A stretch of DNA of 62,380 nucleotides from Ignavibacteriales bacterium (GTDB lineage Bacteria > Bacteroidota > Ignavibacteria > UBA10030 > BY39). A program made the translations under genes and the position numbers. The stretch lies in assembly GCA_037443685.1 (NCBI GenBank), contig JBBINX010000005.1, positions 1-62,380 on the forward strand. Direction: 5' to 3'. The notes beneath the pieces were generated by a model. It did not search any database. It saw only the letters and a list, made by a program, of their open reading frames with translations, and was not told where the DNA came from. Below are positions 46,862-61,214 of the stretch, piece by piece. Numbering within the stretch: position 1 is the first letter of the stretch; each line of letters begins with the position of its first letter.

Positions 46862-46903
46862 GATTATAATTCGTTCTGCAACGTTTTCTAACTCTCGGAT
46901 ATT

Positions 46904-47962
46904 TCAGGGCCAATTGTATTGAATAAGTTGGGACTGTATTTCGGGGGTAAGAAATTTTATTTTTTCTTCTGCACCACGTCGTTGGAAGAAATGAGTCAAC
47001 AACGGAATAATGTCTTCTTTTCGTTCACGTAAGGGAGGTAATTTGATGGGTATAATATTTAGCCGATAATAGAGGTCATCTCGAAATCGATTCGATTTTA
47101 CCCGATTATAAAGGTCAACTTTTGTAGCACATAGAACACGAACATTAATCGATATGTTTTCATCTCCACCTAATCTAACAAATTCTCTTTCTTGTAGTAC
47201 TCTGAGTAATTTTACCTGCAATGTCATTGGCAGATCATCGACATCATCAATAAAAATCGTTCCTCCGTTAGCTCTTTCGAAATAACCGATGTGGCGTTTG
47301 ATTGCACCAGTGAATGACCCCTTTTCATGTCCGAAAAGTTCGCTTTCGAGCAAAGATTCTGGTATAGCAGCACAGTTCATCGGAATAAACGGAGAAGCTT
47401 TTCTTGAGCTGTAAGAATGTAAAGCACGCGCAACTAATTCTTTGCCAGTTCCACTTTCACCTTCGATAAGTACTGTATAGTCATGTGCTGCAACTGCTTT
47501 AATGGTTTCTACAAGTTGCTTGGTTTGAGCGGAAATTCCTACAATAATTTTATCCTCAATACTTTTTAATTTCTTCCTTAATTTAGCATTTTCTTCCAAT
47601 GCATCGCGGAGTTGTTTGATGTGCTTCAACATGCTTATCAAGCGATCAGGTGAAAATGGCTTAGTCAAATAATCATAAGCACCCAATTTTATTGCTTCGA
47701 CTGCAGTGTCAATTGTAGCGAAAGCTGTTATTACAATAACGTAACAATTAGTATTTTTGGTTTTTACAGCTTTCAAAATATCCATTCCCGAAACGTGTGG
47801 AAGACGGAGGTCCGTTATTACTACATCAAAGTTGTTCTCAAAAAATTTATTTAAACCATCACGTCCGCTTTCTGTGCTGGTAATATCATAACCTTCTTTT
47901 TGTAATGTTTCGTCGAGTGTTATTCGAGTGATTTTTTCGTCTTCAATTAATAATATTTTCAT
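46904..47962 (-). CDS. NtrC-family sigma-54-dependent response regulator (receiver + AAA+ domain), terminated prematurely by an in-frame TGA
   Basis: Receiver domain (DVVITDLRLP, K in LTKPF). GESGTGKELVARALH, ESELFGHEKGSFTGA (GAFTGA-type loop), GTIFIDDVDD, RVLCAT, FRDDLYYRL. Ends ...LIQYNWP*. Confidence 0.9.
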   Translation of the reverse strand: MKILLIEDEKITRITLDETLQKEGYDITSTESGRDGLNKFFENNFDVVITDLRLPHVSGMDILKAVKTKNTNCYVIVITAFATIDTAVEAIKLGAYDYLTKPFSPDRLISMLKHIKQLRDALEENAKLRKKLKSIEDKIIVGISAQTKQLVETIKAVAAHDYTVLIEGESGTGKELVARALHSYSSRKASPFIPMNCAAIPESLLESELFGHEKGSFTGAIKRHIGYFERANGGTIFIDDVDDLPMTLQVKLLRVLQEREFVRLGGDENISINVRVLCATKVDLYNRVKSNRFRDDLYYRLNIIPIKLPPLRERKEDIIPLLTHFFQRRGAEEKIKFLTPEIQSQLIQYNWP

Positions 47963-49428
47963 TGTTCCATTTTAATCGGTAGGATTACTTTAAATTCAGT
48001 CTCTTTATTTGGAATACTTTTTACTTCTATATTTCCTCTGTGTGCTTCTACAATTCCTAAACTTACTGACAAGCCAAGCCCGGTTCCTTCTTTCGGTCCT
48101 TTTGTTGTGTAAAACGGTTCGAAAATATTTTGAAGATTATCTTCATTTATACCGATTCCATTATCTATCACCGAGACATATAATTGTTTAGGATCCAACA
48201 AACGGCTTTTTATAATAATAGAACCTGCTTCATTCACTGCGTCAATGCTGTTTAGTAGAATGTTCATAAAAACTTCGGTTATCAATTGCTCATCTGCTTG
48301 AATGTTTGGTAGTTTAAGATCCAAATCTAATTGAAACTGAATTTGTTTATTTTTAATTCTAAAATCTAATAGCCGTGATACCTTTTGTATCACCTCATTG
48401 ATATTTAAATAGACCATTGCTTTTTCCTGTTGGCGTGCAAAGGAAAGAAGCTTTTGTACCACAGTTTCAATATAGTTAATACCTTCTTCCACTAACTTTA
48501 AATATTCTTTTGTTTGTTGTTGGTTAGCTGGCTCTTTATATATAGCGTATAAACAATTTTTTATACCGTTCAATGGATTATTTATTTCGTGAGCGACTCC
48601 AGAAGCTAACCTCCCTATCGAGGCGAGTTTTTCTGCATTATAAATTTGTTTCTGTGCCTCTACGAGTTGCTTTTTCGAATGCGAAAGTCTTTTAAGTAAC
48701 AACCCGAACCGATAGTTTAAAAAGCCGATTTCATCGTTACGTTGGGGGAGAGAAATTTCAGTATCGGAGTCTATATCGGTTTTATCCATCGCATTGACGA
48801 GTATACGAAGCGAGTTTGTTAATCGTCCGATCGTTATATAAAGCACAACAAGAGTAACAATAATCACACAGGTTGTGATAAAAAATAAAAGAAAGAATAA
48901 TTTTTGAATTTCTGTACGCATTGATTCAGCATCAAAACCAATAATTAATACACCCCAGCGTTTGCTGGCTACACGCAATGGCAGAACTGTTTCGATTATC
49001 CATCCATAGTCTTCGGAGTTATGAATTGCGGTTATTAAAGAATCAGATTCCATCACCGCTACCTTTATTGGTTCTTTTATTCCTTGGTCATACTTGGTGA
49101 AATCGCTATGAGCGAGTATTTGACGGGAGTTATTATACACTGCTATATATTTTATCCCTTCTATTGAATTCATAAAATTATTGATATAACGTTCGAGCAG
49201 ATCCTCGACTTGTGTGTTTTCTTTCTGCCCATAAATAAAAGCATCCGTTAGCGAAGTCGAAATAGCTTTTGTTACTGACGAAGCATTTTTTTCTTGGTTA
49301 GCAACTATTAGAGTTCGCCATTGAAAAAGTATGGTTATAGAGATAACTATCATCAGCAGAATAGTTATCCCTCCGATAACAACCATTAACTTAGTAACTA
49401 AGCCAACTTTGTATGGATTTTTATCCAA
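47959..49428 (-). CDS. Membrane sensor histidine kinase
   Basis: Two TM flanking a roughly 150-aa periplasmic domain, a HAMP-like linker, H-box SGVAHEINNPLNGI, N-box NILLNSIDA, G-boxes DNGIGI and GTGLGLSVS. 4-nt overlap with the regulator gene. Confidence 0.9.
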   Translation of the reverse strand: MDKNPYKVGLVTKLMVVIGGITILLMIVISITILFQWRTLIVANQEKNASSVTKAISTSLTDAFIYGQKENTQVEDLLERYINNFMNSIEGIKYIAVYNNSRQILAHSDFTKYDQGIKEPIKVAVMESDSLITAIHNSEDYGWIIETVLPLRVASKRWGVLIIGFDAESMRTEIQKLFFLLFFITTCVIIVTLVVLYITIGRLTNSLRILVNAMDKTDIDSDTEISLPQRNDEIGFLNYRFGLLLKRLSHSKKQLVEAQKQIYNAEKLASIGRLASGVAHEINNPLNGIKNCLYAIYKEPANQQQTKEYLKLVEEGINYIETVVQKLLSFARQQEKAMVYLNINEVIQKVSRLLDFRIKNKQIQFQLDLDLKLPNIQADEQLITEVFMNILLNSIDAVNEAGSIIIKSRLLDPKQLYVSVIDNGIGINEDNLQNIFEPFYTTKGPKEGTGLGLSVSLGIVEAHRGNIEVKSIPNKETEFKVILPIKMEQ

Positions 49429-49430
49429 TA

Positions 49431-50351
49431 TTACTTAACCTTTCTGCTTTGGATTAGTTTTCTTATGTGATGATAATCGCTGTCGGTAGCTTCCACGAAT
49501 CCGAAGGAAAATTCTTTGTCCCACGATTCTACTTTTTTTCTATTCTCGGGTTTACGAACGTCTAGATTCAATAGGGCTGTTTTTATTGCATCGACAACTT
49601 TGGGGTTAAAATCTTTCGGAACAACAATTGGAGAACCTGCCATAGGATAGGATTTAGCGATAATCCTAATCCCAAATTTAGCGTAATCTTTTGCAATTTG
49701 TTCTCTTACTACTCCCGCATCAAAATTTCCTTTTAAAACCTGGGATATCACCGTTTGATGATGTGAAAAATTAAAAATTGAATCCAGTTCATTTTGTTTA
49801 ATATTCTGTTTTTTTAATTCATAAAATAAAAACCAGTTTGTAGTAAATGATTGTTCAGATGGCAGTGCTATTCGCTTTCTACGGATATCATCGATACTGT
49901 GTATTCCACTGCCACTTTTTGTAATAAGTACGGAATGGAAAAAGGGTTCTGAATTTTCATTTAAAGGTTTTAAAATACATTTAACGCCAAATTTATCATG
50001 CGCTCCCACATACACATAAGACCCAAGAAATGCCGCCTCAACTTTGTGATTTACAAGCTGCTGAACTGTTTCATCATAATTTGAGCTAAGTTTGAGTTCG
50101 AACTTAAAATCAGAGTTTTCACTTAAGTAATCCATCAATGGTTGATAACCCTGAAAAATAACCGGCGGCGGATAACGTGAAACAACGCCAATAAATATTG
50201 TATCTTTTTTTAATGTAACAGCTCTGTTATTCAAATTTTCTTGAAAATTTGGAAAGGGTTTTTGAATATCGAGGACAGACAAATATATCAAAGTGGTGGC
50301 TGAAGCTAAAACAATAATTATTAACACAATTAGACAAACTTCTTTTTTCAT
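49431..50351 (-). CDS. PhnD-like (phosphate/phosphite/phosphonate-type) periplasmic substrate-binding protein
   Basis: Signal anchor MKKEVCLIVLIIIVLASA. IGVVSRYPPPVIFQGYQPLMDYLSE...YDETVQQLVNHKVEAAFLGSYVY resembles the Phosphonate-bd fold. The ORF-track start at 50387 is probably too long. Confidence 0.65.
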   Translation of the reverse strand: MKKEVCLIVLIIIVLASATTLIYLSVLDIQKPFPNFQENLNNRAVTLKKDTIFIGVVSRYPPPVIFQGYQPLMDYLSENSDFKFELKLSSNYDETVQQLVNHKVEAAFLGSYVYVGAHDKFGVKCILKPLNENSEPFFHSVLITKSGSGIHSIDDIRRKRIALPSEQSFTTNWFLFYELKKQNIKQNELDSIFNFSHHQTVISQVLKGNFDAGVVREQIAKDYAKFGIRIIAKSYPMAGSPIVVPKDFNPKVVDAIKTALLNLDVRKPENRKKVESWDKEFSFGFVEATDSDYHHIRKLIQSRKVK

Positions 50352-50394
50352 AATGAAAAATATAGTATTTAGATGATGAAAAAGCAAACATTGA

Positions 50395-50440
50395 GGCGAT
50401 TTATCGCCACTTTATCGGTGTCTATTCGCCACAAAGGCGA
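50395..50440. promoter_or_regulatory. Two palindromic operator/UAS-like sites built from GGCGAT/ATCGCC half-sites
   Basis: GGCGAT-TT-ATCGCC (50395-50408) and TTCGCC-ACAAA-GGCGAT (50425-50441 region), in the divergent intergenic region about 110-155 nt upstream of the sigma-54-like promoter. Confidence 0.5.
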
Positions 50441-50550
50441 TATTTCGTTCTAATAAAAAATAAATAATTATTTTCTCTGTAAAAAACCTCTATATGATCA
50501 ATAATTTCAAGAATTTTATCTGCTGAGCGACTTGAAAAATCGTTTTAAAA

Positions 50551-50565
50551 TGGCACTTTTTTTGA
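50551..50565 (+). promoter_or_regulatory. Sigma-54 (-24/-12)-like promoter
   Basis: TGGCAC-ttttt-TTGA versus the consensus TGGCAC-N5-TTGC(A/T). Correct GG-to-G spacing (12 nt), one mismatch at the -12 C. It lies 59 nt upstream of ATG 50624. Confidence 0.55.
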
Positions 50566-50623
50566 CTTTATTTAATTGGTTTTAACTATAATTTTTTTAT
50601 CTTAAGAAAAAAAAGGAACAATT

Positions 50624-51208
50624 ATGGAAAATATTATACCTCGATGGGAGTGGCGTACTTTTTCTAACGATCTTGGTAAAGCAGAAGAAAACATAAGAAA
50701 ACACTCGGAAGGAAAGACACGGGAGAGTAATGAAGTTTATATACTTTCTGAAGTTAGCAATGATAACACAAAAGTGCGTGATGATCTTATGGATATTAAA
50801 ACTCTGCAGCAAGTTAATGAAGATCGCTTGGAACAATGGTTACCGATTATGAAGGGAGCTTTTCCGCTTCCTGTTTCTGAAATTGAGAAAGTATTTAAAT
50901 GTTTTAAAGTTGCTCTCCCTAAGTTTAAGCGAACTGAATATACATTCCAACAATATCTTGATGAGCTTATTCGTCCTTCTAAATTGTTAAAAGCAGTTAA
51001 TGTACATAAAAAAAGAACAGGTTTTACAATAAACAATACGATTGTAGAAATTGCAGAAGTAACTGTCGAAGGTAAAGTTATAAAGACCGCCGCAGTTGAA
51101 ATGGAAGACCCTGAACTTGTAATTAAAACCGTAAGAGAGCTTGGACTAGATACTTTTCCGAATATTAATTATCTTCGCGGGTTAAAAAACTTAATCGGAA
51201 TGAAATAG
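50624..51208 (+). CDS. CYTH-like domain protein with a degenerate N-terminal ExExK strand
   Basis: The strand pattern resembles CYTH (EWRTF in place of EIERKF; TKVRDD; MDIKTL; KKRTGFTINNTIVEIAEV). Assignment is by eye only. Confidence 0.4.
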   Translation: MENIIPRWEWRTFSNDLGKAEENIRKHSEGKTRESNEVYILSEVSNDNTKVRDDLMDIKTLQQVNEDRLEQWLPIMKGAFPLPVSEIEKVFKCFKVALPKFKRTEYTFQQYLDELIRPSKLLKAVNVHKKRTGFTINNTIVEIAEVTVEGKVIKTAAVEMEDPELVIKTVRELGLDTFPNINYLRGLKNLIGMK

Positions 51209-51217
51209 GAGAACGAA

Positions 51218-51685
51218 ATGGCAAATGAAATTGAACGAAAATTTTTAGTAAAAGGTGAGTTCAAAAAATTTGTAAGTAAGGAAACGCGAATCGTTCAGGG
51301 GTATCTTTCATCGGTACCCGAACGGACGGTGAGAGTTCGCATTAAGGGCGACAAAGGTTATATAACCATCAAAGGAATTGGTAATACTTCAGGTGCCAGC
51401 CGATATGAATGGGAGAAGGAAATTTCAATAAACGAAGTTGAAGAATTATTAAAAATATGTGAACCCGGTGTCATTGATAAAACCCGTTTTTTGGTAAAAG
51501 TCGGTAATCATACTTTCGAAGTAGATGAATTCCATGGTGAGAATAAAGGACTTGTTCTCGCAGAAATTGAATTAGCTTCAGAAAGTGAAACTTTTCAAAA
51601 ACCAGATTGGCTCGGTGAAGAAGTTACGGGCGACATAAAATATTATAACTCAATGTTGATGAAAATTCCTTATACAAAATGGTAA
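51218..51685 (+). CDS. CYTH-domain protein (CyaB/ThTPase-type triphosphate tunnel metalloenzyme)
   Basis: MANEIERKFLV (ExExK), RVRIKGDKGYITIKG, KTRF.V..G..FEVDEF.GEN.GLVLAEIEL. Confidence 0.85.
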   Translation: MANEIERKFLVKGEFKKFVSKETRIVQGYLSSVPERTVRVRIKGDKGYITIKGIGNTSGASRYEWEKEISINEVEELLKICEPGVIDKTRFLVKVGNHTFEVDEFHGENKGLVLAEIELASESETFQKPDWLGEEVTGDIKYYNSMLMKIPYTKW

Positions 51686-51732
51686 GAACAAATGCTTAAT
51701 AACAACATTCATTTTCATTTATTAAATTTGAT

Positions 51733-53328
51733 ATGAGTAAATTTGACCCACTCGATATGCATAACTACCGCATCGAGAAACTACCAAAACGTGATAAATC
51801 AAAAATTGAAAAGTGGCTTGCAATACTTGGGCCTATATTAGCAATTGCCGCTTTTGTTTTATTCGCTTTTATTATAAAACTACCTTTTCTTAATTCCATC
51901 GATTCAACTCAATTGGTAACAGATGCAGCGAAGGAAGTTTATAATAAATTAGGTCACGATGCATTTGTAAAAAACAACGAATTCATGCTTGCAATTTTTG
52001 TTGCATCCATTATTCTTTGGATGACACAGTCAATTCCAAATTATTTGACATCTCTTTTGCTGATTATAAGTCTAGTGCTAACGGGTGTACTATCGGAAAA
52101 AGTCGCTTATGCTCAACTCGGTCATCCTGTTATGTGGTTGAACATAATGTCGTTCGTGCTTGCAAGTATGTTAGTCGTTACCGGACTTGCAAAACGATTT
52201 GCTCTTTGGCTGATTATCAAATTTGGTAAAAATGCGAGCACAATATTTATAAGTTTTATTGTTATTAATCTCGTCATGTCTGCATTTATATCCGCAACAA
52301 CTGCAAAAGCGGCAATACTGCTACCTATCTTTATGGTGATAGCGGCTATCTATGGAGCGCAAAGCGGAGTAAATAGGAATAATTTTGGGCGGAGTATAGT
52401 CCTTCAAAATCTTTTAAACATTAATCTTGGTGCTGGCGCTTTTGTAACAGGTTCAGGAGCCAATCTGTTAGCTGCTGCACTTATAGGTGGAGCTATTGGT
52501 GGAAAAATTTTCTTCTCCGATTGGATGATCGCGATGTTTCCTGTGATGCTTTGTTTGATGTTTATTGGTTACTTACTTGCTATGAAGATATTTTTCCCTC
52601 TAAAACTTGAAGAACGGTTACCGTTAATTGAGGGGGGCATGGAGAGGTTAAAAGAAGAATACGATAAACTCGGTTCAATAAGTTTTCTCGAGATTAAATC
52701 GGCAATTATTTTTATTGCCATCCTTGCCCTTTGGGCTACAGATAGTATTCACGGGATTAGTGCGACTGCGGTAGCATTTTTCGGAGCGATTGTAGCGCTG
52801 CTACCAAGAATTGGAATTGTAAAATGGAATGATGTTGACATCCCATGGCATCTCATGTTATTCTCTGCTGGTGCTTATACTCTTGGTGCCGGTTTGGATG
52901 CCACAGACCTCCCATCGATTAGTGTAAATGCTTTTTTCGACCATCTGGGAATTGGTAAAAATACAAGTTTTTGGCTGCTGTATTTATTATTAACTGGAGT
53001 TATGGTTTTTAGCGCACTTATTTTCCAATCTAAAACTATGCGTGCTATGATATTCATACCAATTGCGATTGGTGTAGCTAACAGATTCGGTTTTAATGTT
53101 GTAAGCCTCGCATTACCAGTTGCTTTTATGATTGAGCACGTTTATGTATTACCTTTTAACAGTAAGCCAGCCGCTTTGCTTTATGAAACCGACCATTATA
53201 GTTTAACCGATACGTTCAAATATGGATTCACAATGATGGTGATTGCCTGGCTGCTCATAATTGTTGCAGGTGAAACTTGGTTCAGATATTTAGGAATAAC
53301 TCCAAACGGAATTTTCGGAATATTTTGA
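51733..53328 (+). CDS. SLC13/DASS-family anion permease
   Basis: Polytopic, with a duplicated hairpin motif (WMTQSIPNYLTSLLL and MIEHVYVLPFNSKPAAL) typical of DASS/ArsB-NhaD superfamily permeases. Confidence 0.7.
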   Translation: MSKFDPLDMHNYRIEKLPKRDKSKIEKWLAILGPILAIAAFVLFAFIIKLPFLNSIDSTQLVTDAAKEVYNKLGHDAFVKNNEFMLAIFVASIILWMTQSIPNYLTSLLLIISLVLTGVLSEKVAYAQLGHPVMWLNIMSFVLASMLVVTGLAKRFALWLIIKFGKNASTIFISFIVINLVMSAFISATTAKAAILLPIFMVIAAIYGAQSGVNRNNFGRSIVLQNLLNINLGAGAFVTGSGANLLAAALIGGAIGGKIFFSDWMIAMFPVMLCLMFIGYLLAMKIFFPLKLEERLPLIEGGMERLKEEYDKLGSISFLEIKSAIIFIAILALWATDSIHGISATAVAFFGAIVALLPRIGIVKWNDVDIPWHLMLFSAGAYTLGAGLDATDLPSISVNAFFDHLGIGKNTSFWLLYLLLTGVMVFSALIFQSKTMRAMIFIPIAIGVANRFGFNVVSLALPVAFMIEHVYVLPFNSKPAALLYETDHYSLTDTFKYGFTMMVIAWLLIIVAGETWFRYLGITPNGIFGIF

Positions 53329-53405
53329 TATGTTCGTTACACATTTTTTGATATATTTTATAGACGTTCTAAAGGAAAAATAAAAACAATTAATTGGATA
53401 CACCG

Positions 53406-54050
53406 ATGGATTTATTATTACGAAAAACAAAAGAACTTGAGATGCAGATAGACGAATATCTTGATATGGCAGTAAAAGGAGCCTTAATTTTTCGACAGGG
53501 GATAAAACACTATTTGAATAATCAGGTTGAAGAATTTACAGAGGATAGGCATAGGATTGATGAAATGGAAAGCAAGGGGGATGCTCTTAGGCGTTCGATT
53601 GAAACAAGGTTGTATTTAGAAACTCTTATACCTGAATTTCGAGGCGATGTATTGGGTTTGCTCGAGAGCACTGACAAAGTTTTAAATATGACAGCCGATA
53701 CACTCGCTCAATTTGAAGTTGAAAAACCTAAAATTTTAGATGAATTAAAACCATTATTCTTAGAGTTAGCAGATGCTGCAACTTCAGCTATTGAATCAAT
53801 GGCTTTAGCTATCCGGTCCTATTTCAAAGAATTGAATAAAGTTCGGGATAATATCAACAAGGTGATGTTTTATGAAAAGGAGACAGATAAGATCAGCGAT
53901 AGGATAAAAAGAACAGTTTTTCAGACAGACTTAGATTTAAGTTTAAAAATACACACGCGTTATTTTGCTTATCACATCGAATTAATTGCTGATGAAGCTG
54001 AAGATGTATGCGACCGTTTATCTATTGCTGCAATTAAAAGGCATTTATGA
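53406..54050 (+). CDS. DUF47/TIGR00153 PhoU-like phosphate-transport regulator
   Basis: Helical-bundle sequence with E.E.D..RR and YFAYHIELIADEAEDVCDRL. The ATGA overlap with the PiT gene is the canonical DUF47-PiT pair. The ORF-track TTG at 53394 is an alternative start. Confidence 0.8.
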   Translation: MDLLLRKTKELEMQIDEYLDMAVKGALIFRQGIKHYLNNQVEEFTEDRHRIDEMESKGDALRRSIETRLYLETLIPEFRGDVLGLLESTDKVLNMTADTLAQFEVEKPKILDELKPLFLELADAATSAIESMALAIRSYFKELNKVRDNINKVMFYEKETDKISDRIKRTVFQTDLDLSLKIHTRYFAYHIELIADEAEDVCDRLSIAAIKRHL

Positions 54051-55537
54051 TTTGGTTTTTTCTAACAAGCGGTTTATTCCTTGGATGGTCATTAGGCGCT
54101 AACGATGGGGTAAATGTTTTCGGGACGGCGGTTTCTTCACGGATGGTGAAGTTTAAATTGGCTGCCTTAATCGCCGGTACATTCATTATTTTAGGTGCAG
54201 TTATCAGTGGTGGTGGAACGACACGTACACTTACCGACTTAGGTGCAGTGAACGCTCTCGCAGGTAGTTTTACAGTGGCTTTAGCTGCAGGTATTGCAGT
54301 AGCATCCATGACGCGACTCAAACTTCCGGTATCAACCTCTCAAGCGATTGTTGGTGGAATTATTGGTTGGAATTTATTTACGGGTTCACCAACAGATACT
54401 TCAGTTTTGTCAAAAATAGTAATGACGTGGGTAGTATCTTTGGTTTTATCCGCTGTATTTGCCTTTATCCTTTTTAAATTCACAACTATCATTTTAAAAA
54501 AAATTAAAATCCATATTCTTCACCTGGATTATTTTACTCGGATGGGTTTAATAGTCGTTGGTGCATTTGCGTCTTATTCATTAGGAGCAAGCAATATCGC
54601 CAATGTTATGGGTATGTTCGTCAATGCTTCTCCTTTCGAAAGCATAAATGTATTTGATCTTTTCCATTTTTCGGGAACTCAACAACTCTTTTTGATAGGT
54701 GGAATAGCGATTGCAGTCGGCATTTATACATATGGCTATAAAGTGATGGTTACTGTCGGTAATCAGTTGTTCAAAATAACACCTATTACTGGTCTAATTG
54801 TGGTATTAGCTGAATCGTTAGTACTGTTTTTATTCGCATCGGAAGGACTTGAAACCCTACTTATAAACAACGGCTTACCACCAATTCCGCTGGTTCCGTT
54901 ATCAAGTACCCAAGTAGTCATTGGGGCAGTCGTCGGAGTTGGCCTTGCAAAAGGTGGCGGCGGAATCAATTACAAAATTTTAGGTAAAATATCTATCGGC
55001 TGGGTAGCAGTGCCGATAATTGCCGCGTTAATAAGTTTTGTAACTCTTTTCTTCGTTCAAAATGTTTTCGAGCAAAAAGTTGTGCAACAGATTCCTTACA
55101 AGTTATCCGAAGACGTTATCGATGCGCTCGGTGAACAAAATATTCAAAAAGAACCGTTATTAAAATTGAAAAATTCATACTATCTCGGTTCGGCTAATTT
55201 CCGTTATGCTTTGAGTAAACAACAAAGATGGAATGAAGATCAACTCTTTTTAATTTTTTCTTATGCAGCACTTGACAGCTTCCTCATCGATTCGTCATTT
55301 GTAAAAGAAACTCTCAAAGATGATTTAATAATGCCTGAACGATTAGAAGTATTAAAAAAATTGCACGGACAAATCTTTGTCCATAAATGGCAACTCGAAA
55401 AAGCTCTTGCTGACTCAGGCAACGCTTGGAAAACTCAATCTGGAAAAGGAGCAAAATTGTATAATAAAATACTTAAACGTGAAAAATATTTAGTATTCGA
55501 TACATTTAGGATTAAATCAAAAATAATTATTAATTAA
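54047..55537 (+). CDS. pit: PiT-family inorganic phosphate transporter with a roughly 150-aa C-terminal soluble extension
   Basis: Duplicated signature GANDGVNVFGTAVSSR and GASNIANVMG. Polytopic. Confidence 0.88.
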   Translation: MIWFFLTSGLFLGWSLGANDGVNVFGTAVSSRMVKFKLAALIAGTFIILGAVISGGGTTRTLTDLGAVNALAGSFTVALAAGIAVASMTRLKLPVSTSQAIVGGIIGWNLFTGSPTDTSVLSKIVMTWVVSLVLSAVFAFILFKFTTIILKKIKIHILHLDYFTRMGLIVVGAFASYSLGASNIANVMGMFVNASPFESINVFDLFHFSGTQQLFLIGGIAIAVGIYTYGYKVMVTVGNQLFKITPITGLIVVLAESLVLFLFASEGLETLLINNGLPPIPLVPLSSTQVVIGAVVGVGLAKGGGGINYKILGKISIGWVAVPIIAALISFVTLFFVQNVFEQKVVQQIPYKLSEDVIDALGEQNIQKEPLLKLKNSYYLGSANFRYALSKQQRWNEDQLFLIFSYAALDSFLIDSSFVKETLKDDLIMPERLEVLKKLHGQIFVHKWQLEKALADSGNAWKTQSGKGAKLYNKILKREKYLVFDTFRIKSKIIIN

Positions 55538-55558
55538 TAATAATAATGAGGTGAACTA

Positions 55559-56842
55559 ATGAATAACAAAAAAAATATTATTTTAGTAATAGCATCAGTG
55601 ATGCTAACTGTTTTCGGTTTTAGCGGATTGATGGCGCAAGATTCGAAAAGCCCCGGGGAAGAATATAAAGCCCCATTAGCCGCCGAGGTTCGTAACGGAA
55701 AACTTTTCTTCGCTTCTGAAGACGGAAATTTTAGCTGGTGGTTCGATTCCCGGCTTCAAATTGATGGAGCTATGTATTTCGAGAACAAGAATCTGATGAG
55801 TAATGGTGTTACATTAAGAAGACTCACCTTTGCACTCAAGGCAATTCTCTGGAAGGATTGGGCGGCTGAACTTGACGTTGATTTTGGCGAGGCAGTTTCG
55901 ACCAAATCTCAAATATCTTTAAGAGATATGTGGATAAAATATACTTTCCCTTCTTTTAATTTTGCCCTTCAAGTAGGACATTTTAAAGAACCTTTTGGAA
56001 TGGAAAGATTAAATAGTTCCCGACTATTGACTTTCTTAGAACGGTCTGCAGTATCTAATGCTATAGCCCTTGGAAGACGAATAGGGGGGGCTGCCAGATA
56101 TTGGAACAACTATGGTCAAGTTACAGCAGCAATCATGGGACACGAAGCTGGGACCAGAGTAGATAAAGGACAACGAGACGAAGGCTTTTCTACAAACCTT
56201 CGTACATCCGTAGCACCAATAAATAAAGATGGACATAACTTGCACATAGGATTTGCTGGTTCCTACAAAATTCCAGACGTTGTCGCTGACCTAAGCCGCA
56301 ACACAATTGAGGTTAACGCCCGCACAGAAACTTATGTATTCAATCCGAAGTTTTTACATACCGGCGATATTAATGATGTAAATTATTATAATCGTTATGG
56401 TACCGAGTTAATGTACATAAATGGACCGTTCTATTTTCAGTCCGAATTTATGGGGATGTCAATTAAACGCTGGAAAACTAAACCGACTGTTAATTTAAGG
56501 GGTGGCTATGCGATGGCGTCCTATATGCTAACGGGTGAAACACGTTATTATCACATTGATGAAGGCGAGGTTGGAGCAATCGAACCGCCAAAAAATAGCT
56601 GGGGTGCATTAGAATTAGCGGCTCGTTACAGTGTTACAAATCTGAACCACTTTAATGCCGGGATAAGGGGTGGACAGTCGAACCAATTAATGCTCGGAAT
56701 AAATTATTACCCCAATATGAATATCAAACTCCAATTCAATTATTCATTCGTTAACTTAGACCAGTATGCTACAAGAAAAGGTAACTTAATTGGAGATGAT
56801 GACCATTCATTCATTCAAATGCGCCTTCAAGCATCATTATAA
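55559..56842 (+). CDS. Phosphate-selective porin O/P family outer-membrane protein
   Basis: Signal peptide present. FSWWFDSRLQIDGAMYFE, LRRLTFALKAILWKDWAAELDVDF, FKEPFGMERLNSSR. C-terminal aromatic-rich strand. Confidence 0.8.
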   Translation: MNNKKNIILVIASVMLTVFGFSGLMAQDSKSPGEEYKAPLAAEVRNGKLFFASEDGNFSWWFDSRLQIDGAMYFENKNLMSNGVTLRRLTFALKAILWKDWAAELDVDFGEAVSTKSQISLRDMWIKYTFPSFNFALQVGHFKEPFGMERLNSSRLLTFLERSAVSNAIALGRRIGGAARYWNNYGQVTAAIMGHEAGTRVDKGQRDEGFSTNLRTSVAPINKDGHNLHIGFAGSYKIPDVVADLSRNTIEVNARTETYVFNPKFLHTGDINDVNYYNRYGTELMYINGPFYFQSEFMGMSIKRWKTKPTVNLRGGYAMASYMLTGETRYYHIDEGEVGAIEPPKNSWGALELAARYSVTNLNHFNAGIRGGQSNQLMLGINYYPNMNIKLQFNYSFVNLDQYATRKGNLIGDDDHSFIQMRLQASL

Positions 56843-56861
56843 AAATAAGGAGATAAAAAAA

Positions 56862-58193
56862 ATGAAAAAAATATTATTAGCTCTTGCATACATTATTCCA
56901 TTATTGTTCACATCTTGTTCACGAGAAGATCCAAATCCTTTAATACCACCACCTCCACCTCAAGTTGCATTTAAGATTAATGAAATTTACTCAAGAGGTG
57001 ATACTATTAATCCTGATTGGATCGAAATTTTCAATCCATCAAGTAGTCAGTTGGATATTAGCGGTTATAAAATCTACGATATCGGCGGACAAAGTGGTTC
57101 AAAACCCAAAAAATTATTCCCGAGTGGAACAAAAATTCCAGCGAAAGGATTTTTTGTTGTTATTGTTGATGATACAACTTCGAGCGGATTTGGTTTATCA
57201 AGTTCGGGTGAACAGGTTTGGTTGGAAAATGCTTTAGGAAGTGTAATAGATAATGTTACTTTCCCAGCGCTTGATGTTAATCAATCGTACATTAGATACC
57301 CGGATGGTTCATCTACTTGGTTGAAGACCGATAGTGTAACAAGTGGGGCATCGAATGTACTAAAAACTAATTTTCTAATTAAAATAAATGAAATTTACTC
57401 AAGTGGGACTGTATCTAATCCAGACTGGATTGAAGTTTATAATTTATTGGGTTCTCAAATTGAACTCAGTGGATTTATGCTTTATAACAATGACGGAAAA
57501 AGTGGTTCGAAGCCAAAAAAATTATTTCCGAATGGCACAATAATTCCAGCTAATGGATTTATTGTTATGGTTGTTGATGATACAACTTCAAGTGGATTCG
57601 GATTATCGAGTTCGGGTGAAAAGGTTTGGTTAGAAAATAATTCTGGTGTTGTTATAGATAGTGTAACTTTTCCCGCCCTTGGAATTGATACCTCTTATGC
57701 CAGACAACCCGATGGCACGGATAATTGGATTAAACTCTTTCCAGCAACGAAAGGTGCTTCTAATATTTCAACAGTAACTGTAAATCTAGTCATGAATGAG
57801 ATTTATTCGAGAGGCACAGCTGGAAATTTAGACTGGATTGAAGTTTATAATCCGAATACTGTTCAGGTTAATCTTAATGGGTATAAGATTTATGATATTG
57901 GTGGGCAAAGTGGAACAAAGCCGAAGAAATCGTTTCCGGCGACTGCTGTTATTCCAGCGAAGGGATTTTATGTTATCATCACTGATACAGCAGATTATTC
58001 GGGTGATTTGAGTGGTTTTGGACTCTCCAGTAGTGGAGAAGAAGTTTGGTTAGAAAATTCCAGCGGTACGGTGATAGATAATGTTACATTTACTGCGATG
58101 AGTACTACACAAACTTACGGAAGGTATCCAGATGGCAGCACAAACTGGCAATTACTAAACACTATTACACGCGGCGGTCCTAATCAACCGTAA
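56862..58193 (+). CDS. Lipoprotein made of three tandem lamin-tail-domain (LTD) repeats
   Basis: MKKILLALAYIIPLLFTSC lipobox after AAGGAGA. Three roughly 137-aa repeats, each with INEIYS.G...NPDWIE(I/V)(F/Y)N, GYKIYD.GGQSG.KPKK.FP, GFGLSSSGE.VWLEN..G.VID.VTF, and YxR(Y/Q)PDG. ORF-track start 56790 rejected because it overlaps the porin gene. Confidence 0.75.
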   Translation: MKKILLALAYIIPLLFTSCSREDPNPLIPPPPPQVAFKINEIYSRGDTINPDWIEIFNPSSSQLDISGYKIYDIGGQSGSKPKKLFPSGTKIPAKGFFVVIVDDTTSSGFGLSSSGEQVWLENALGSVIDNVTFPALDVNQSYIRYPDGSSTWLKTDSVTSGASNVLKTNFLIKINEIYSSGTVSNPDWIEVYNLLGSQIELSGFMLYNNDGKSGSKPKKLFPNGTIIPANGFIVMVVDDTTSSGFGLSSSGEKVWLENNSGVVIDSVTFPALGIDTSYARQPDGTDNWIKLFPATKGASNISTVTVNLVMNEIYSRGTAGNLDWIEVYNPNTVQVNLNGYKIYDIGGQSGTKPKKSFPATAVIPAKGFYVIITDTADYSGDLSGFGLSSSGEEVWLENSSGTVIDNVTFTAMSTTQTYGRYPDGSTNWQLLNTITRGGPNQP

Positions 58194-58207
58194 ATATAAT
58201 AACACTC

Positions 58208-58224
58208 ACCTGCTTGCCGCAGGT
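58208..58224 (+). terminator. Short hairpin after the LTD gene
   Basis: acctgc / gcaggt 6-bp stem with a 5-nt loop and a weak T tail. Confidence 0.35.
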
Positions 58225-58229
58225 AGGGT

Positions 58230-58413
58230 TTACACAGATATGACTGATTAACTGATGTTGCGCAAAGTTCAACTTTAAAAAAATAAAAAAACGATTTAAA
58301 GAATAATAGAACACGGATGACGCTGATTTTGACTGATTTTCACGGATTTAAATCTGTGTACATCAGTTTAATCTGTGTCATCAGTGGTCTATTTTGTGTT
58401 TTGCGTAACATCA
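58230..58413. repeat. Structured MITE-like intergenic repeat (cacggat/atctgtg family), copy A
   Basis: Outer IR tgatgttgcgcaaa (58253-58266) / tttgcgtaacatca (58400-58413), 13/14. Inner IR tacacagat / atctgtgta. Near-palindrome cacggatttaaatctgtg. Shares the 13-mer agaacacggatga with copy B. Confidence 0.6.
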
Positions 58414-58439
58414 ACTATTTAATAATAAAAAAAATTACT

Positions 58440-59195
58440 TTGTCTATTCGACTTCAACAAATATTGATTCTACTCCAGTTAATTATACTGAGTAATTTGA
58501 ACTGTGGTAGAAATGACCCTGGAGATACACCTACTATTCAGTCGATTAGTCCGATTGCAGTTTATAATTTGAATATTCCGGAACCATCCGGCTTAGTTTT
58601 TAACACAAAAGATTCCACTTTTTACACCGTTTCCGATGGAGTGGGCGGCGCTATTTATCAAATATCAATCGACGGGCAAATTGTAAATACTTATTCAGTA
58701 AACGGTAATGATATGGAGGGGATAACATTCTCAGATAATTACGACACCCTGTATGTTGCCGAAGAAGGTTCCCGCCAGATTATTAAATATAGTACGACCG
58801 GGATAAAGATTTCTCCTATTAATGTTTCAGGCACAAATTCATACAATAACGGTTTAGAAGGGATTGCAGTTAAAGGCAATTCCTTTTTTGTTGTAAACGA
58901 GAAAAGCCCCGCAGCATTCATCGAGCTTAATTTGCAGGGTGAAAAACTGTATGAAGTTAATATCTCCTATGCTCTAGATTTATCCGATATATGTTATGAC
59001 CCTGTAGAAGATATTATATGGCTTGTGAGCCACGAGTCGCAATCGCTTTTTAAGATTAGCTTAGCAGGTCAACTGATTAAGCAATGGAAAATCCCTGTCG
59101 TTCAACCCGAAGGTGTTACGATAGTGAATGGTCGTTTTGTATATATTGTTTGTGATAAAGAAGCAAAGTTATATGTTTTTAATAAACCAATATAG
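58440..59195 (+). CDS. SdiA-regulated/YjiK-like six-bladed beta-propeller lipoprotein
   Basis: EPSGLVFNTKDSTFYTVSDG...NGNDMEGITF...LYVAEEGSRQIIKY...NNGLEGIAV..F.VVNEKSP...DLSDICYDP....IWLVSHESQ.LFK....QPEGVT. Proposed TTG start gives MSIRLQQILILLQLIILSNLNCG. The ORF-track N-terminus (58317-58439) is translated repeat element. Confidence 0.65.
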   Translation: MSIRLQQILILLQLIILSNLNCGRNDPGDTPTIQSISPIAVYNLNIPEPSGLVFNTKDSTFYTVSDGVGGAIYQISIDGQIVNTYSVNGNDMEGITFSDNYDTLYVAEEGSRQIIKYSTTGIKISPINVSGTNSYNNGLEGIAVKGNSFFVVNEKSPAAFIELNLQGEKLYEVNISYALDLSDICYDPVEDIIWLVSHESQSLFKISLAGQLIKQWKIPVVQPEGVTIVNGRFVYIVCDKEAKLYVFNKPI

Positions 59196-59211
59196 CGCTC
59201 ATATTAAATCC

Positions 59212-59300
59212 CCCGAAGGCTATCATTACTTCATCTCAGAAAACCTTCGGGAGGTTGCCAACTTCTTCGCGCTCTTTGCGATATCTCAGCGCACTTTGCG
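59212..59300. repeat. Hairpin plus direct-repeat element (ctttgcg family)
   Basis: cccgaagg (59212-59219) / ccttcggg (59244-59251) 8-bp stem, then direct 12-mers gcgctctttgcg (59269-59280) and gcgcactttgcg (59289-59300). Confidence 0.5.
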
Positions 59301-60858
59301 GTTATATCATTATAAAAAATTACAAAAAATTTCAATAGTGTTTTTAATAACATCATCGGTTGTATTTAACCAGAACAACCCAACGGCTTTCGATTTATCA
59401 GGCGGAAATTATTCATTCACTTACTGGGATAGTTTAGCCCCTGCAGGCACTTATCCCGCCAATATGATTTTTCATTTAACCGATACACAAGATCCGGGAT
59501 TAACTGTTCAGATGACCGATAATTATACAGCCGCTTATAACTTGACAAGCCAATCGAGGATTAACGGACTCAGAGACGATGGTGTTTCTTTCATTAACAC
59601 TAGCTCGAATGGTTACCTCGGCGCCGCAGTGGTTGCTTTGAATTCTTTGGGCAGGTCTAACATTCAAATAACTTGGACAGCCGGAACTATTACGCCAGCC
59701 GGTGTTGACCGTGTTTATAGATTTCGGTTACAATATCGCGTTGGAACTTCTGCATCATGGATCGATGTACCGGGTCCTGTTGAATACACGGCGAACAGCA
59801 CTGCGGGTCATTCGCAGACATTCGGGCCCACGACTTTACCTTCTGATGCAAACAACAGTCCTATAGTTCAGGTGCGCTGGAAGTATTATAACGTATCAGG
59901 AACCACGGGAACAAGACCCCGACTAAGATTAGATGATATTTCAATTACGAGTTCACAGATAATAGGAGCTACAAAGTTAGCGGTGATAAGCATAAACGGT
60001 GGACAGAGTCCGACTGCTGGTGTACCTTTTAATGTTGTAGTTCAATCGCAGGACGACAGCGGCGTTCCTCAAAACGTTTCTCAGAATACCGGTATTCAAT
60101 TGTCGCTTGAAACCGGTAACGGAGTACTTGGCGGTACTCTCAGCGGAACAATCCTCGCTGGCACAAACAGCGTTACAGTTTCCGGCATAACATACACAAC
60201 ACCGCTGAACGCAATAAATGTTTACAATACCGCTGTGCGCGAACCCTCGGGTTTAGCTTTTAATCCTTCCGATAATACGCTTTATACTGTCTCCGATGGC
60301 TCGAACGGTTCGGTATCTCAGATTTCATTAACAGGGTCAGTCATTCGCACCGTTAATGTGAATGGAAACGATATGGAAGGAATTACAATGCAGACACCTT
60401 TTGATACACTGTTTGTAGTGGAAGAGGGACTGCGGCAAATTGTAAAGTATAGTTTGACGGGCGTAAAATTAGGAACAATTAATGTAAATGTTACAGGACC
60501 CGACAACAACGGATTAGAAGGAATAGCAATTAACCCGACAAGCAAGAATTATTATGTAATAAAGCAAAAAGACCCTCGGTTATTGATTGAGCTTAACTCT
60601 TCTGGAACAGAAATAAAAAGAACCGAAATAACGTTTGCGCCCGATTTATCCGATATTTGTTTCGATTCTGAGCTAAATGTTTTATGGCTTGTAAGCGGCG
60701 AAGCGCAAATGCTTTATAAGATTACGACAGACGGCGTTCTGCTTACTAAATGGAAGCTACCTGTTCAAAAACCCGAAGGTATAGCGGTTGTGCAAAATAA
60801 TTATTTATATATTACTTGCGACTCCACCTGGAAATTATATGTTTTTAATAAGCCGTAA
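59296..60858 (+). CDS. Secreted two-part protein: about 300-aa unknown N-terminal domain(s) + Ig-like segment + SdiA-regulated/YjiK-like propeller
   Basis: The C-terminal 250 aa are paralogous to 58440..59195 (EPSGLAFNPSDNTLYTVSDG, NGNDMEGIT, LFVVEEGLRQIVKY, NNGLEGIAI, DLSDICFDS, LWLVSGEAQ, KPEGIAV). The start is uncertain: ORF-track 59128 overlaps the previous gene and the repeat, and TTG 59296 would give MRLYHYKKLQKISIVFLITSSVVF. Confidence 0.6.
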   Translation: MRLYHYKKLQKISIVFLITSSVVFNQNNPTAFDLSGGNYSFTYWDSLAPAGTYPANMIFHLTDTQDPGLTVQMTDNYTAAYNLTSQSRINGLRDDGVSFINTSSNGYLGAAVVALNSLGRSNIQITWTAGTITPAGVDRVYRFRLQYRVGTSASWIDVPGPVEYTANSTAGHSQTFGPTTLPSDANNSPIVQVRWKYYNVSGTTGTRPRLRLDDISITSSQIIGATKLAVISINGGQSPTAGVPFNVVVQSQDDSGVPQNVSQNTGIQLSLETGNGVLGGTLSGTILAGTNSVTVSGITYTTPLNAINVYNTAVREPSGLAFNPSDNTLYTVSDGSNGSVSQISLTGSVIRTVNVNGNDMEGITMQTPFDTLFVVEEGLRQIVKYSLTGVKLGTINVNVTGPDNNGLEGIAINPTSKNYYVIKQKDPRLLIELNSSGTEIKRTEITFAPDLSDICFDSELNVLWLVSGEAQMLYKITTDGVLLTKWKLPVQKPEGIAVVQNNYLYITCDSTWKLYVFNKP

Positions 60859-60972: not shown

Positions 60973-61056
60973 AGAACACGGATGAACACTGATTCAGCGG
61001 ATCAGCACAGATAATAATCCGTGTATATCCGTCAAATTCGCGTTTTTCTGTGTTCT
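60973..61056. repeat. Structured MITE-like intergenic repeat, copy B
   Basis: agaacacgg / ctgtgttct outer IR, cacggat / atccgtg inner IR, ctgat..atcag hairpin. The 13-mer agaacacggatga is identical to 58308-58320. Confidence 0.6.
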
Positions 61057-61214
61057 ATTAAAATTATTCATTTCTTACAGATTTAATTTTTTAGAAGTCT
61101 CAATTTTTTAATTTTGAATTGTTTCAGTATTAAGCAGACTAATTAACCAATAACTAATTAACAATAAACAACTAACAAAAAATATCCGCCTCAGGCGGAA
61201 AAAGGAGTAATGTT

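Follow-up and report, generated by a model that had tools for sequence, protein, structure and literature searches.

What does a bacterium gain from encoding proteins built of lamin-tail-domain (LTD) repeats, together with YjiK-like beta-propellers, directly behind its genes for phosphate channels and carriers? The question is raised by a stretch of 62,380 nucleotides from an Ignavibacteriales bacterium (contig JBBINX010000005.1 of assembly GCA_037443685.1; the whole stretch is called the window here), in which about 12 genes, spanning roughly positions 46598-60858, form a cluster. A previous interpretation, called the sequence-only reading below, had taken the LTD and YjiK-like proteins for a surface layer that captures or processes polymeric organophosphate. 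We suggest instead that the cluster is a single inducible system for inorganic phosphate species, equipped with a surface module for their capture or processing, a reading that draws on genes and structure models and to which we assign a probability of about 0.55. Its substrate is probably condensed phosphate. As judged from its sequence, the cluster is a co-oriented and conserved unit that combines a sigma-54-type promoter with a porin, two anion carriers, a CYTH protein, a second protein of predicted TTM fold and the LTD/YjiK module. Every single family in it is already known except the CYTH-like one, and we found no description of this gene combination in the literature.

Gene content and order

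The cluster was delimited from an open reading frame (ORF) listing and from Pfam and NCBIfam scans. We place its start at about 46598 because the genes further upstream are housekeeping genes (LeuRS, glycosyltransferases, NAD kinase, RadA and Ham1 in the window annotation). A binding protein, a histidine kinase and a sigma-54 activator lie on the minus strand, divergent from the plus-strand genes, which run in the order CYTH-like, CYTH, DASS/SLC13, PhoU_div, PiT, Porin_O_P, triple-LTD lipoprotein, YjiK-1 and YjiK-2:

46598..47962, minus strand: sigma-54 enhancer-binding response regulator with REC, AAA+ and HTH domains (Pfam Response_reg and Sigma54_activat, 4e-70)
47959..49428, minus strand: sensor histidine kinase with a periplasmic sCache_3_2 domain (Pfam HisKA, HATPase_c, sCache_3_2)
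49431..50351 (longest ORF to 50387), minus strand: membrane-anchored periplasmic binding protein of the PhnD family, ArrX/PtxB-like (Pfam Phosphonate-bd, 1e-51; TIGR01098, 113.6 bits)
50395..50440, no strand: two palindromes, GGCGAT-TT-ATCGCC at 50395-50408 and TCGCC-N5-GGCGA at 50426-50440, read from the sequence
50551..50565, plus strand: sigma-54-type -24/-12 promoter, TGGCAC-N5-TTGA, 72 nt upstream of the CYTH-like gene
50624..51208, plus strand: divergent TTM-fold ("CYTH-like") protein of 194 aa (by predicted fold; RxExR, here RWEWR, instead of ExExK)
51218..51685, plus strand: CYTH protein, a NeuTTM-like inorganic triphosphatase of 155 aa (Pfam CYTH PF01928, 2e-14, 54 bits against a cut-off of 23.2)
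51733..53328, plus strand: sodium-coupled anion symporter of the DASS/SLC13 family (Pfam Na_sulph_symp, 3e-53; TIGR00785, 200 bits)
53394..54050 (alternative start ATG 53406), plus strand: PhoU_div (DUF47), regulator partner of PiT (Pfam PhoU_div PF01865, 8e-22)
54047..55537, plus strand: PiT-family inorganic phosphate transporter, extended at its C terminus by about 150 aa (Pfam PHO4 PF01384, 7e-53)
55559..56842, plus strand: anion-selective outer-membrane porin of the OprO/OprP family (Pfam Porin_O_P PF07396, 4e-56, 191.2 bits against a cut-off of 20.9)
56862..58193, plus strand: lipoprotein with three LTD repeats (Pfam LTD, three matches, 3e-44; lipobox LFTSC followed by SREDP)
58440..59195, plus strand: YjiK-1, a five-bladed beta-propeller lipoprotein of the YjiK/SdiA-regulated family (Pfam SdiA-regulated PF06977, 5e-20, 72 bits against 21)
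59296..60858, plus strand: YjiK-2, with the propeller in its C-terminal 220 aa and an N-terminal region of 300 aa that includes an immunoglobulin (Ig)-like segment (SdiA-regulated, 6e-24, 85 bits against 21)

All of these genes had been listed in the sequence-only reading, in the right order and on the right strands; the coordinates that it gave for the locus, however, leave out the kinase and the activator (46598-49428). The ATGA overlap that it reported between the DUF47 and PiT genes is present at 54047-54050. A scan for intrinsic terminators inside the operon found no clean one, and an Rfam scan of the window found no RNA family.

Conservation in other genomes

That the surface genes belong with the phosphate genes is best seen in other organisms. 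An LTD-anchored scan of species-representative genomes yielded 80 loci, in whose 10-kb flanks homologues of the window proteins were located by tblastn. At least one phosphate gene is present in 57 of the 80 (porin in 54, PiT, CYTH and CYTH-like in 47 each, DASS in 45 and YjiK in 29), the PhoU_div-PiT pair is conserved in 47 loci, and LTD and porin genes are adjacent, lying within 700 nt of one another, in 44/80. The 23 loci without phosphate genes include all LTD loci of Firmicutes, Actinobacteria and Akkermansia (28-31% identity), so the link to phosphate is specific to this LTD subfamily; they also include some second LTD copies in genomes that have a phosphate-linked copy elsewhere (e.g. 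L012/L020 and L013/L035).

The carriers of the cluster are Ignavibacteriota, Melioribacteraceae, KSB1 and many Bacteroidota, and three arrangements recur among them. Ignavibacteriota, Melioribacteraceae, KSB1 and some Bacteroidota have activator-kinase-binding protein divergent from CYTH-like-CYTH-DASS-PhoU_div-PiT-Porin-LTD-YjiK-LTD(T9SS), where T9SS marks a sorting domain of the type IX secretion system; Lentimicrobiaceae and Bacteroidales have PhoU_div-PiT-Porin-LTD-CYTH-like-CYTH-DASS; and two loci (L064 and L073) have PhoU_div-PiT-Porin-LTD-YjiK-CYTH-like-CYTH-DASS. The blocks [PhoU_div-PiT-Porin-LTD] and [CYTH-like-CYTH-DASS] thus occur in either order, depending on the phylum, and since both orders recur in the three arrangements, the blocks appear to have been shuffled as units and yet kept together. 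Immediately behind the porin gene there is almost always one for an LTD lipoprotein, after which genes for a YjiK propeller and a T9SS-secreted LTD protein usually come.

The same cluster is recovered from three independent anchors: LTD, YjiK and CYTH-like. Loci anchored on YjiK read Porin-LTD-YjiK-LTD-YjiK (L088, L091), CYTH-YjiK (L089), YjiK-PhoU_div (L090) or comprise full clusters (L093-L096); a YjiK-anchored metagenome scan with reduced alignment returned five loci. The three loci found by CYTH-like-anchored look-ups (L097-L099) hold the complete 12-gene cluster, with flanks that differ and are unrelated. Furthermore, one Bacteroidota locus (L073) encodes a single protein of 903 aa that reads LTD-LTD-SdiA-regulated-LTD-Por_Secre_tail; here the three surface genes, separate elsewhere, are naturally fused in their usual order.

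Because the gene set recurs in dozens of species while its flanks differ in each, we take it for more than a chance neighbourhood; as judged from synteny, the cluster is a conserved functional unit. The sequence-only reading had named the conservation of porin-LTD-YjiK adjacency as one of the points on which its claim would turn, and the porin-LTD adjacency counted above, with LTD-YjiK-LTD(T9SS) following the porin across phyla, decides that point in its favour. The coupling of LTD and YjiK genes to porin and PiT genes that it proposed is likewise upheld by adjacency across phyla and by the L073 fusion.

Several further features of these loci deserve mention. A protein of 485 aa with predicted membrane segments and no Pfam family is encoded directly after DASS in 19 loci of the Bacteroidales/Lentimicrobiaceae type (e.g. 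L005:15081-16538), and a homologue also lies near an LTD gene in one locus from Clostridia (L063). The next gene in L005-L007 encodes a T9SS-tailed protein of 391 aa that may be a distant propeller; this protein of the Bacteroidales-type loci looks propeller-like by eye, but it matches the YjiK profile only weakly (hhalign probability 42%) and was not counted as YjiK. Some Ignavibacteria and Melioribacteraceae clusters carry an extra gene of 226-262 aa, without a Pfam match, between DASS and PhoU_div (L093:4743-5531, L098:12644-13324). An Ignavibacteriaceae genome (L002:7891-11593 and L003) has a reduced module, Metallophos-CYTH-YjiK-LTD(T9SS), with porin, PiT and DASS absent within the 10-kb flanks; the CYTH-YjiK-LTD link therefore persists without transport genes nearby. 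About 3 kb downstream of the cluster in L093 (15496-20756) and L094 lie genes for an ECF (extracytoplasmic function) sigma factor, a FecR homologue, a TonB-dependent receptor and a protein with a weak LTD match and DUF4876, another pairing of LTD with an outer-membrane transporter. Finally, the CYTH and DASS proteins of this genome are 62-80% identical to those of Bacteroidales/Lentimicrobiaceae-type loci such as L005-L031, in which the porin is at 31-37% and CYTH-like at 35-43%. The high identity points to either horizontal transfer of a [CYTH-DASS] block or unusually strong constraint.

Porin, carriers and the CYTH and CYTH-like proteins

The porin match covers profile positions 5-367 of 370. 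OprP is a phosphate-selective channel and OprO a pyrophosphate/polyphosphate-selective one; the porin sequence is too distant from both for specificity residues to be transferred. PiT carriers transport MeHPO4. Across phyla, most relatives have an orthologue of the DASS carrier at 68-89% identity, and six loci have one at 38-44%; the DASS family includes the Na+-phosphate carrier Pho90 (PMC13394699).

Two genes for cytoplasmic proteins head the operon. The CYTH protein aligns end to end with the NeuTTM structures 3typ and 2fbl, its best solved relatives (5e-18), and keeps the NeuTTM positions EIERKF, QGYL, RxR, K, ExE, KTR (KxR), ExD and ExE, and with them the ExExK motif, the Tyr/Lys pair and all charged residues of the tunnel. 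NeuTTM cleaves inorganic tripolyphosphate specifically, and what triphosphatases of this kind do physiologically is unsettled in the literature (PMC3440374). Its CYTH-like neighbour found no match in Pfam, in NCBIfam or among PDB sequences. The AlphaFold2 (AF2) model of this protein (pLDDT 83.4) gives 32 structure matches at E <= 1e-3, nearly all of them TTM/CYTH proteins, among which are ThTPase, SaTTM, AtTTM3, CyaB, 1yem and 2dc4 (E from 1e-6 to 1e-3; best match 5a64, 1.3e-6); three are to Mediator Med18/20, the only other fold that recurs. Thus the CYTH gene named by the sequence-only reading stands, by Pfam and by its NeuTTM residues; what speaks for the "CYTH-like" label is the predicted fold and not a family match.

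The CYTH-like family is large (1384 representatives at 50% clustering), and its near-invariant residues (R7, E9, R11, K50, R52, K129, R131, E142 and E159) are charged ones in an alternating arrangement. Five of its ten long relatives are fused to Ppx/GppA exopolyphosphatase domains. In most Ignavibacteria-type loci the protein is 81-91% identical, a degree of conservation that no other gene of the cluster reaches in such loci. A blastp link from CYTH-like to CYTH in the ORF clustering came from a chimeric ORF in L040, and is not to be read as homology. One relative is fused to a Sulfate_transp domain, and several carry the JGI name "exopolyphosphatase".

The surface module

The LTD gene, with a Shine-Dalgarno sequence and an ATG start, begins 19 nt past the porin stop, and each of its three repeats has a conserved GGQSGxKPKK loop. 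The lipoprotein export signal (LES) of Bacteroidota is K-(D/E)2, placed close behind the Cys. Each of the 48 LTD proteins encoded beside a porin (48/48) has a lipobox Cys followed by SR(D/E)EP (Ignavibacteria type) or VKDE (Bacteroidales type), which predicts that these lipoproteins are surface-exposed. The second LTD protein of most relatives carries the T9SS sorting domain Por_Secre_tail (PF18962); by Pfam, this domain is absent from all three surface proteins of the window. Both the T9SS domains of LTD relatives and the acidic LES-like motif bear out the surface location that the sequence-only reading had proposed. It had also seen no nuclease motif in the LTD protein, and we agree: Pfam finds LTD repeats and no EEP or YhcR nuclease domain, and the score with the NCBIfam model for ExeM is 24 bits, where the cut-off is 1300. 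A comparison of the LTD protein with the sequences of solved structures gave no match. The role of bacterial LTD domains is itself unresolved (PMC6085458).

In relatives, YjiK orthologs sit between the two LTD genes of the same cluster. The AF2 model of YjiK-1 (pLDDT 91.9) has 21 strands, and hence we regard it as five-bladed. Its top Foldseek match is E. coli YjiK (3qqz, 1.5e-11), and its highest TM-score is to the five-bladed glutaminyl cyclase 3nol (0.70/0.75); other structural neighbours are generic propellers, including NHL RNA binders and YncE. The structure prediction and Foldseek search proposed in the sequence-only reading thus confirm the PF06977/YjiK fold for the propeller, and at the same time tell against its notion of a six-bladed, phytase-like one, as the model is five-bladed and the best matches are SdiA-regulated and YjiK. 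Five motifs are invariant in the family (EPSG, D-MEGI, LEG, LSD and PEG), one per blade at the predicted start of its first strand. If the motif strands line the central channel, as in Ca2+-dependent propeller hydrolases, a conserved ring of Glu and Ser residues would be placed there.

YjiK-2 is less easily described. Its SdiA-regulated match covers residues 366-563 of the long ORF, and the N-terminal 301 aa have no Pfam match. Within this N-terminal region (59296-60198), residues 211-332 are similar to a domain whose coding sequence lies some 5 kb downstream of DASS in L013, L019 and L042, and a shared Ig-like module therefore recurs near these clusters. "YjiK2" matches in these three loci were excluded from the counts, as they aligned to the Ig-like middle segment and not to the propeller. 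A second YjiK gene whose product is extended at the N terminus is present in L091, too.

Control of the cluster

What would switch such a system on? The binding protein, kinase and activator form a conserved trio, the kinase adjoining the binding protein in relatives too. The best solved relative of the binding protein is ArrX (6x6b, 1.3e-19), followed by PtxB, HtxB and PhnD, and no ABC transporter genes lie next to it or elsewhere in the locus; by these signs it is probably the sensor of the locus. Since a kinase and a sigma-54 activator, and no ABC transporter, stand beside the binding protein, we propose three-component control of the ArrX/AioX kind, in which a periplasmic oxyanion would be sensed. 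ArrX, AioX and ArxX are sensor binding proteins that signal via a kinase to a regulator (PMC5908839).

The promoter is conserved as well. A single match to the motif GGCA[CT]-N5-WWG[CAT], 48-94 nt ahead of the ATG, is present in 17 of the 18 orthologous intergenic regions, against a mean of 0.05 and a maximum of 2 when the sequences are shuffled. Repeats of the TCGTCA/TGACGA type, similar to the palindromes of the window, are also found in the orthologous intergenic regions, and we infer that the palindromes at 50395-50440 are candidate binding sites for the activator. No PhoB/PhoR or PstSCAB is among the annotated genes of the window or of related loci, where Pho boxes were not searched for, and no aio, arx or arr arsenic redox genes were detected in any locus. 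Control is, on this gene content, by a sigma-54 three-component system of the ArrX/AioX type and not by an obvious Pho regulon.

A possible route for condensed phosphate

Taken together, these parts could form the following pathway. The binding protein would sense a periplasmic phosphate-like oxyanion and signal through the kinase to the activator, which would turn the operon on. At the surface, LTD proteins would hold a source of condensed or bound phosphate at the mouth of the OprO/P-type channel; the source would most likely be polyphosphate, held via Ca2+/Mg2+ bridges or the KPKK loops. Short units would be cut off or freed from this source by the five-bladed YjiK protein, whose predicted Glu/Ser ring is compatible with a metal site. 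Phosphate (Pi), pyrophosphate (PPi) and triphosphate (PPPi) could then cross the porin; PiT, regulated by PhoU_div, would import Pi, and DASS would import a multivalent species, for instance PPi or PPPi. Imported triphosphate would be turned into Pi in the cytoplasm by the NeuTTM-like triphosphatase and the CYTH-like protein of predicted TTM fold.

We favour condensed phosphate as the best fit because it alone explains why a specific tripolyphosphatase and a Ppx-linked protein of predicted TTM fold should head a transport operon. It is favoured, too, because Porin_O_P channels include a pyrophosphate/polyphosphate-selective member, because DASS carriers include a Na+-phosphate transporter, and because among the conserved genes we recognised none for a nuclease, a nucleotidase, a phosphatase or the handling of nucleosides or inositol, although several recurring ORFs in and beside the clusters have no Pfam assignment. 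The extracellular DNA and phytate that the sequence-only reading had named, beside polyphosphate, as polymeric organophosphate are hence not the substrates that we would choose, as the cytoplasmic partners point to inorganic condensed phosphate. A bolder version, which we hold only tentatively and with more doubt than confidence, would have the cluster be a Sus-like surface machine for extracellular polyphosphate, in which the porin, the LTD lipoproteins, a T9SS-anchored LTD protein and a five-bladed YjiK metallo-propeller act together, a new class of DASS carrier imports PPi and PPPi, the two TTM enzymes hydrolyse them and the ArrX-like sensor detects condensed phosphate.

A number of observations weigh against the proposal of an inorganic phosphate system. 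The mature LTD, YjiK-1 and YjiK-2 proteins are acidic (isoelectric points, pI, of 4.6, 4.5 and 4.9), which is unfavourable for direct binding of a polyanion. The surface layer feeding porin and PiT that the sequence-only reading envisaged accordingly survives in its linkage and its location, and does not square with simple polyanion capture (pI 4.5-4.9). As the YjiK fold is generic, its role as a hydrolase is putative. DASS is only distantly related to the solved dicarboxylate, citrate and sulfate carriers, and its substrate is not readable from homology. The CYTH-like protein lacks ExExK; its hhalign comparison with CYTH is not significant (E = 0.88), nor are the weak matches of its 91-sequence profile to the archaeal CYTH proteins 1yem and 2dc4 (E = 0.095 and 0.46), and its model reaches only modest TM-scores (about 0.45) against TTM structures. 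Roughly half of the loci linked to phosphate, those of the Bacteroidales type, are without a clear YjiK propeller, and neither ppk nor ppx is conserved in the cluster itself. In the window, the activator is truncated, and a gap of 246 nt with a hairpin and an element resembling a miniature inverted-repeat transposable element (MITE) separates LTD from YjiK-1.

Other explanations

The alternative that fares best, though we consider it unlikely, is the scavenging of extracellular DNA or RNA, in which LTD proteins tether nucleic acid, YjiK is a Ca2+-dependent phosphodiesterase or nucleic-acid binder, and the phosphate enters through porin and PiT. LTD domains occur in extracellular nucleases such as ExeM, in which removal of the LTD lowers DNA degradation in vitro (PMC6085458), and in a nuclease-containing protein of DNA-degradation loci (PMC8289736); to this can be added the weak NCBIfam match to ExeM, the resemblance of the YjiK model to RNA-binding NHL domains and to the DNA-binding YncE, and the Metallophos gene that adjoins CYTH-YjiK-LTD in L002. 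The NHL and YncE likeness, however, is a generic propeller similarity, the LTD and YjiK proteins are acidic, and the surveyed clusters, in which several recurring ORFs are without Pfam assignment, have no recognisable gene for a nuclease, a nucleotidase, a phosphatase or a nucleoside transporter. Nor does nucleic-acid use account for two TTM proteins and DASS.

The acidity of the surface proteins becomes an asset if their ligand is a metal. One could imagine that LTD and YjiK bind Ca-, Mg- or Fe-phosphate and hand metal-phosphate to porin and PiT, as a means of using mineral or metal-bound phosphate. A conserved Glu ring is typical of Ca2+-binding propellers, MeHPO4 is the species that PiT carries, and by their record titles the carriers of the cluster come from sediments, sludge and groundwater. 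We nevertheless think this improbable: it is a purely inferential proposal, it leaves the tripolyphosphatase, the Ppx-linked TTM protein and DASS unexplained, and no genes for organic-acid or siderophore-type solubilisation were recognised in the clusters.

Two further substrates have, in our estimate, poor odds. For phytate, YjiK would have to be a phytase-like esterase that frees Pi from inositol phosphates held by LTD, and about 100 residues of both propellers do match Pfam Phytase-like PF13449 (38-39 bits against a cut-off of 27.6). Beta-propeller phytases are six-bladed, however, and the YjiK-1 model is five-bladed; its best family is SdiA-regulated and its best structure YjiK, with no phytase among the top 50 structural matches listed. 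No genes for inositol transport or catabolism were recognised in the clusters, and the TTM pair is left without a role. An equally poor case is that of a different oxyanion (arsenate, sulfate, selenate or phosphite), for which an ArrX-like sensor would induce the porin and the PiT-family and DASS carriers. The solved relatives of the sensor are the arsenate-binding ArrX and the phosphite-binding PtxB and HtxB, DASS carriers transport sulfate, PiT is weakly similar to the model of the sulfate permease CysP, and the porin is weakly similar to ExtI. Set against this are the complete NeuTTM-type site of CYTH, the link of the second TTM family to Ppx, and the association of both the PhoU_div-PiT pair and the Porin_O_P family with phosphate; ars, ptxD, sulfate-assimilation and selenate-reduction genes were not detected in any cluster.

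Last, that LTD and YjiK are passenger genes with an unrelated role in adhesion or a surface layer, merely lying beside a phosphate operon, has very little to recommend it: the 246-nt gap, the hairpin and the MITE-like repeats set the YjiK pair off in the window, and some LTD paralogues occur elsewhere without phosphate genes (e.g. L020, L023, L024 and L035), but the adjacency is kept across phyla despite rearrangement of the rest of the cluster, the genes lie 7-60 nt apart on the same strand in relatives, and three independent anchors recover the cluster. Each of these explanations leaves part of the conserved gene set unexplained.

Peculiarities of this genome's copy

The window is not a typical example of the cluster. 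An in-frame TGA at 46904-46906 splits the activator ORF at the WPGN(V/I)RELEN motif (WP*NIRELENV), and the frame continues to the HTH. A sister strain (L001, 99.66% identical) has GGA at that codon, by a single G->T difference, and an intact activator of 454 aa with HTH_8. Either a nonsense mutation inactivates the regulator here, or the TGA is an error of assembly; recoding was rejected, since the sister strain has GGA and nothing else hinted at an alternative code.

For both YjiK genes the start of the longest ORF falls within repeat or hairpin sequence, and the likely starts, each followed by a predicted signal peptide, are TTG 58440 and TTG 59296. Two MITE-like elements bracket the YjiK pair:

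58304..58378, no strand: MITE-like palindromic element, copy 1, upstream of YjiK-1 (inverted repeat of copy 2)
60986..61060, no strand: MITE-like palindromic element, copy 2, downstream of YjiK-2 (inverted repeat of copy 1)

The copies, the only two in the window, are about 75-85 nt long (AGAACACGGATGA...TGTGTTCT), inverted and 72% complementary. An exact look-up of the porin returned the contig of the sister strain only, which ends about 200 nt past the LTD gene, at the MITE-like element; exact look-ups of the LTD protein and of YjiK-1 gave no match. The end of the sister-strain contig at this element suggests a rearrangement hotspot or an assembly breakpoint.

The YjiK genes are less tightly packed here than in relatives, where the gap between LTD and YjiK is 44-59 nt and not 246. 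The lipoprotein has three LTD repeats, against one or two in most Ignavibacteria-type relatives, and a second, larger YjiK (YjiK-2) replaces the usual third surface gene, LTD-T9SS. Given this replacement, the MITE-like repeats and the nonsense codon of the activator, the system may be rearranged in this strain and is possibly not inducible. Beyond the cluster, a terminator-like hairpin at 61185-61199 precedes a partial gene (61215-62380) whose product is secreted and without a Pfam family; it appears repeat-rich and beta-rich and may be a further surface protein.

Significance and comparison with known systems

Phosphorus acquisition shapes the communities of sediments, groundwater and sludge, where Ignavibacteriota and Lentimicrobiaceae/Bacteroidales are abundant and polyphosphate turnover is large. 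Textbook uptake relies on PhoBR, Pst, PiT and OprP; the cluster suggests a different and widespread design that is induced by its substrate via sigma-54 and includes a surface module. It also offers an experimental handle on LTD-only proteins, YjiK/SdiA-regulated propellers, a TTM-like family without a Pfam model and specific tripolyphosphatases. Should the polyphosphate machine be real, it would give a first function to bacterial LTD-only proteins, to the YjiK/SdiA-regulated family and to the large TTM-like family, and a physiological role to tripolyphosphatases of the NeuTTM type. Even if polyphosphate should prove not to be the substrate, so tightly conserved a cluster is a functional unit that merits characterisation.

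With the Pseudomonas OprO/OprP and Pst/PiT systems of the Pho regulon, the cluster has in common a Porin_O_P channel ahead of inner-membrane phosphate uptake and the PhoU_div-PiT pair. In contrast to the Pho regulon, it is without PhoBR and PstSCAB and uses sigma-54 and a binding-protein sensor, and it adds surface LTD lipoproteins, a YjiK propeller, DASS and two TTM proteins, none of which are known there. Its regulatory half resembles AioXSR, ArxXSR and ArrXSR, which share a PhnD-family protein that has no ABC partner and lies beside a kinase and a sigma-54 activator, with a -24/-12 target promoter; the targets here, however, are phosphate channels and transporters and not arsenic redox enzymes, and the kinase has sCache_3_2.

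Unlike NeuTTM and YgiF triphosphatases, the CYTH protein sits in a transport operon, beside a second, divergent protein of predicted TTM fold for which there is no Pfam model. The LTD proteins are secreted or surface proteins like the ExeM/NucH nucleases, but here consist of LTD repeats only, with or without a T9SS tail, and have no EEP or YhcR domain. E. coli YjiK (3qqz, PF06977) belongs to the same family as the cluster propellers, is their best structure match and shares with them a motif with Glu that recurs in several blades; sequence identity amounts to about 20% only, the cluster proteins are lipoproteins in a phosphate cluster, and YjiK itself is without a known function.

There is a parallel in overall logic with the Sus-like loci of Bacteroidota, in which an outer-membrane channel is followed by surface lipoproteins and secreted accessories under a substrate-sensing regulator, and LES-like lipoprotein signals and T9SS cargo are common to both. 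This is an analogy only. A passive porin takes the place of a TonB-dependent SusC, there is no SusD (a Pfam search found no Plug, TonB_dep_Rec or SusD domains in the locus), and the presumed substrate is inorganic phosphate and not a glycan. The cluster is thus no Pho regulon, since it has no PhoBR or Pst, no ExeM-type system, since it has no nuclease domain, no beta-propeller phytase system, given five blades, and no Sus locus, for want of SusC and SusD; we regard it as an operon for acquiring phosphate whose surface module had not been described before and which may include a branch that imports condensed phosphate.

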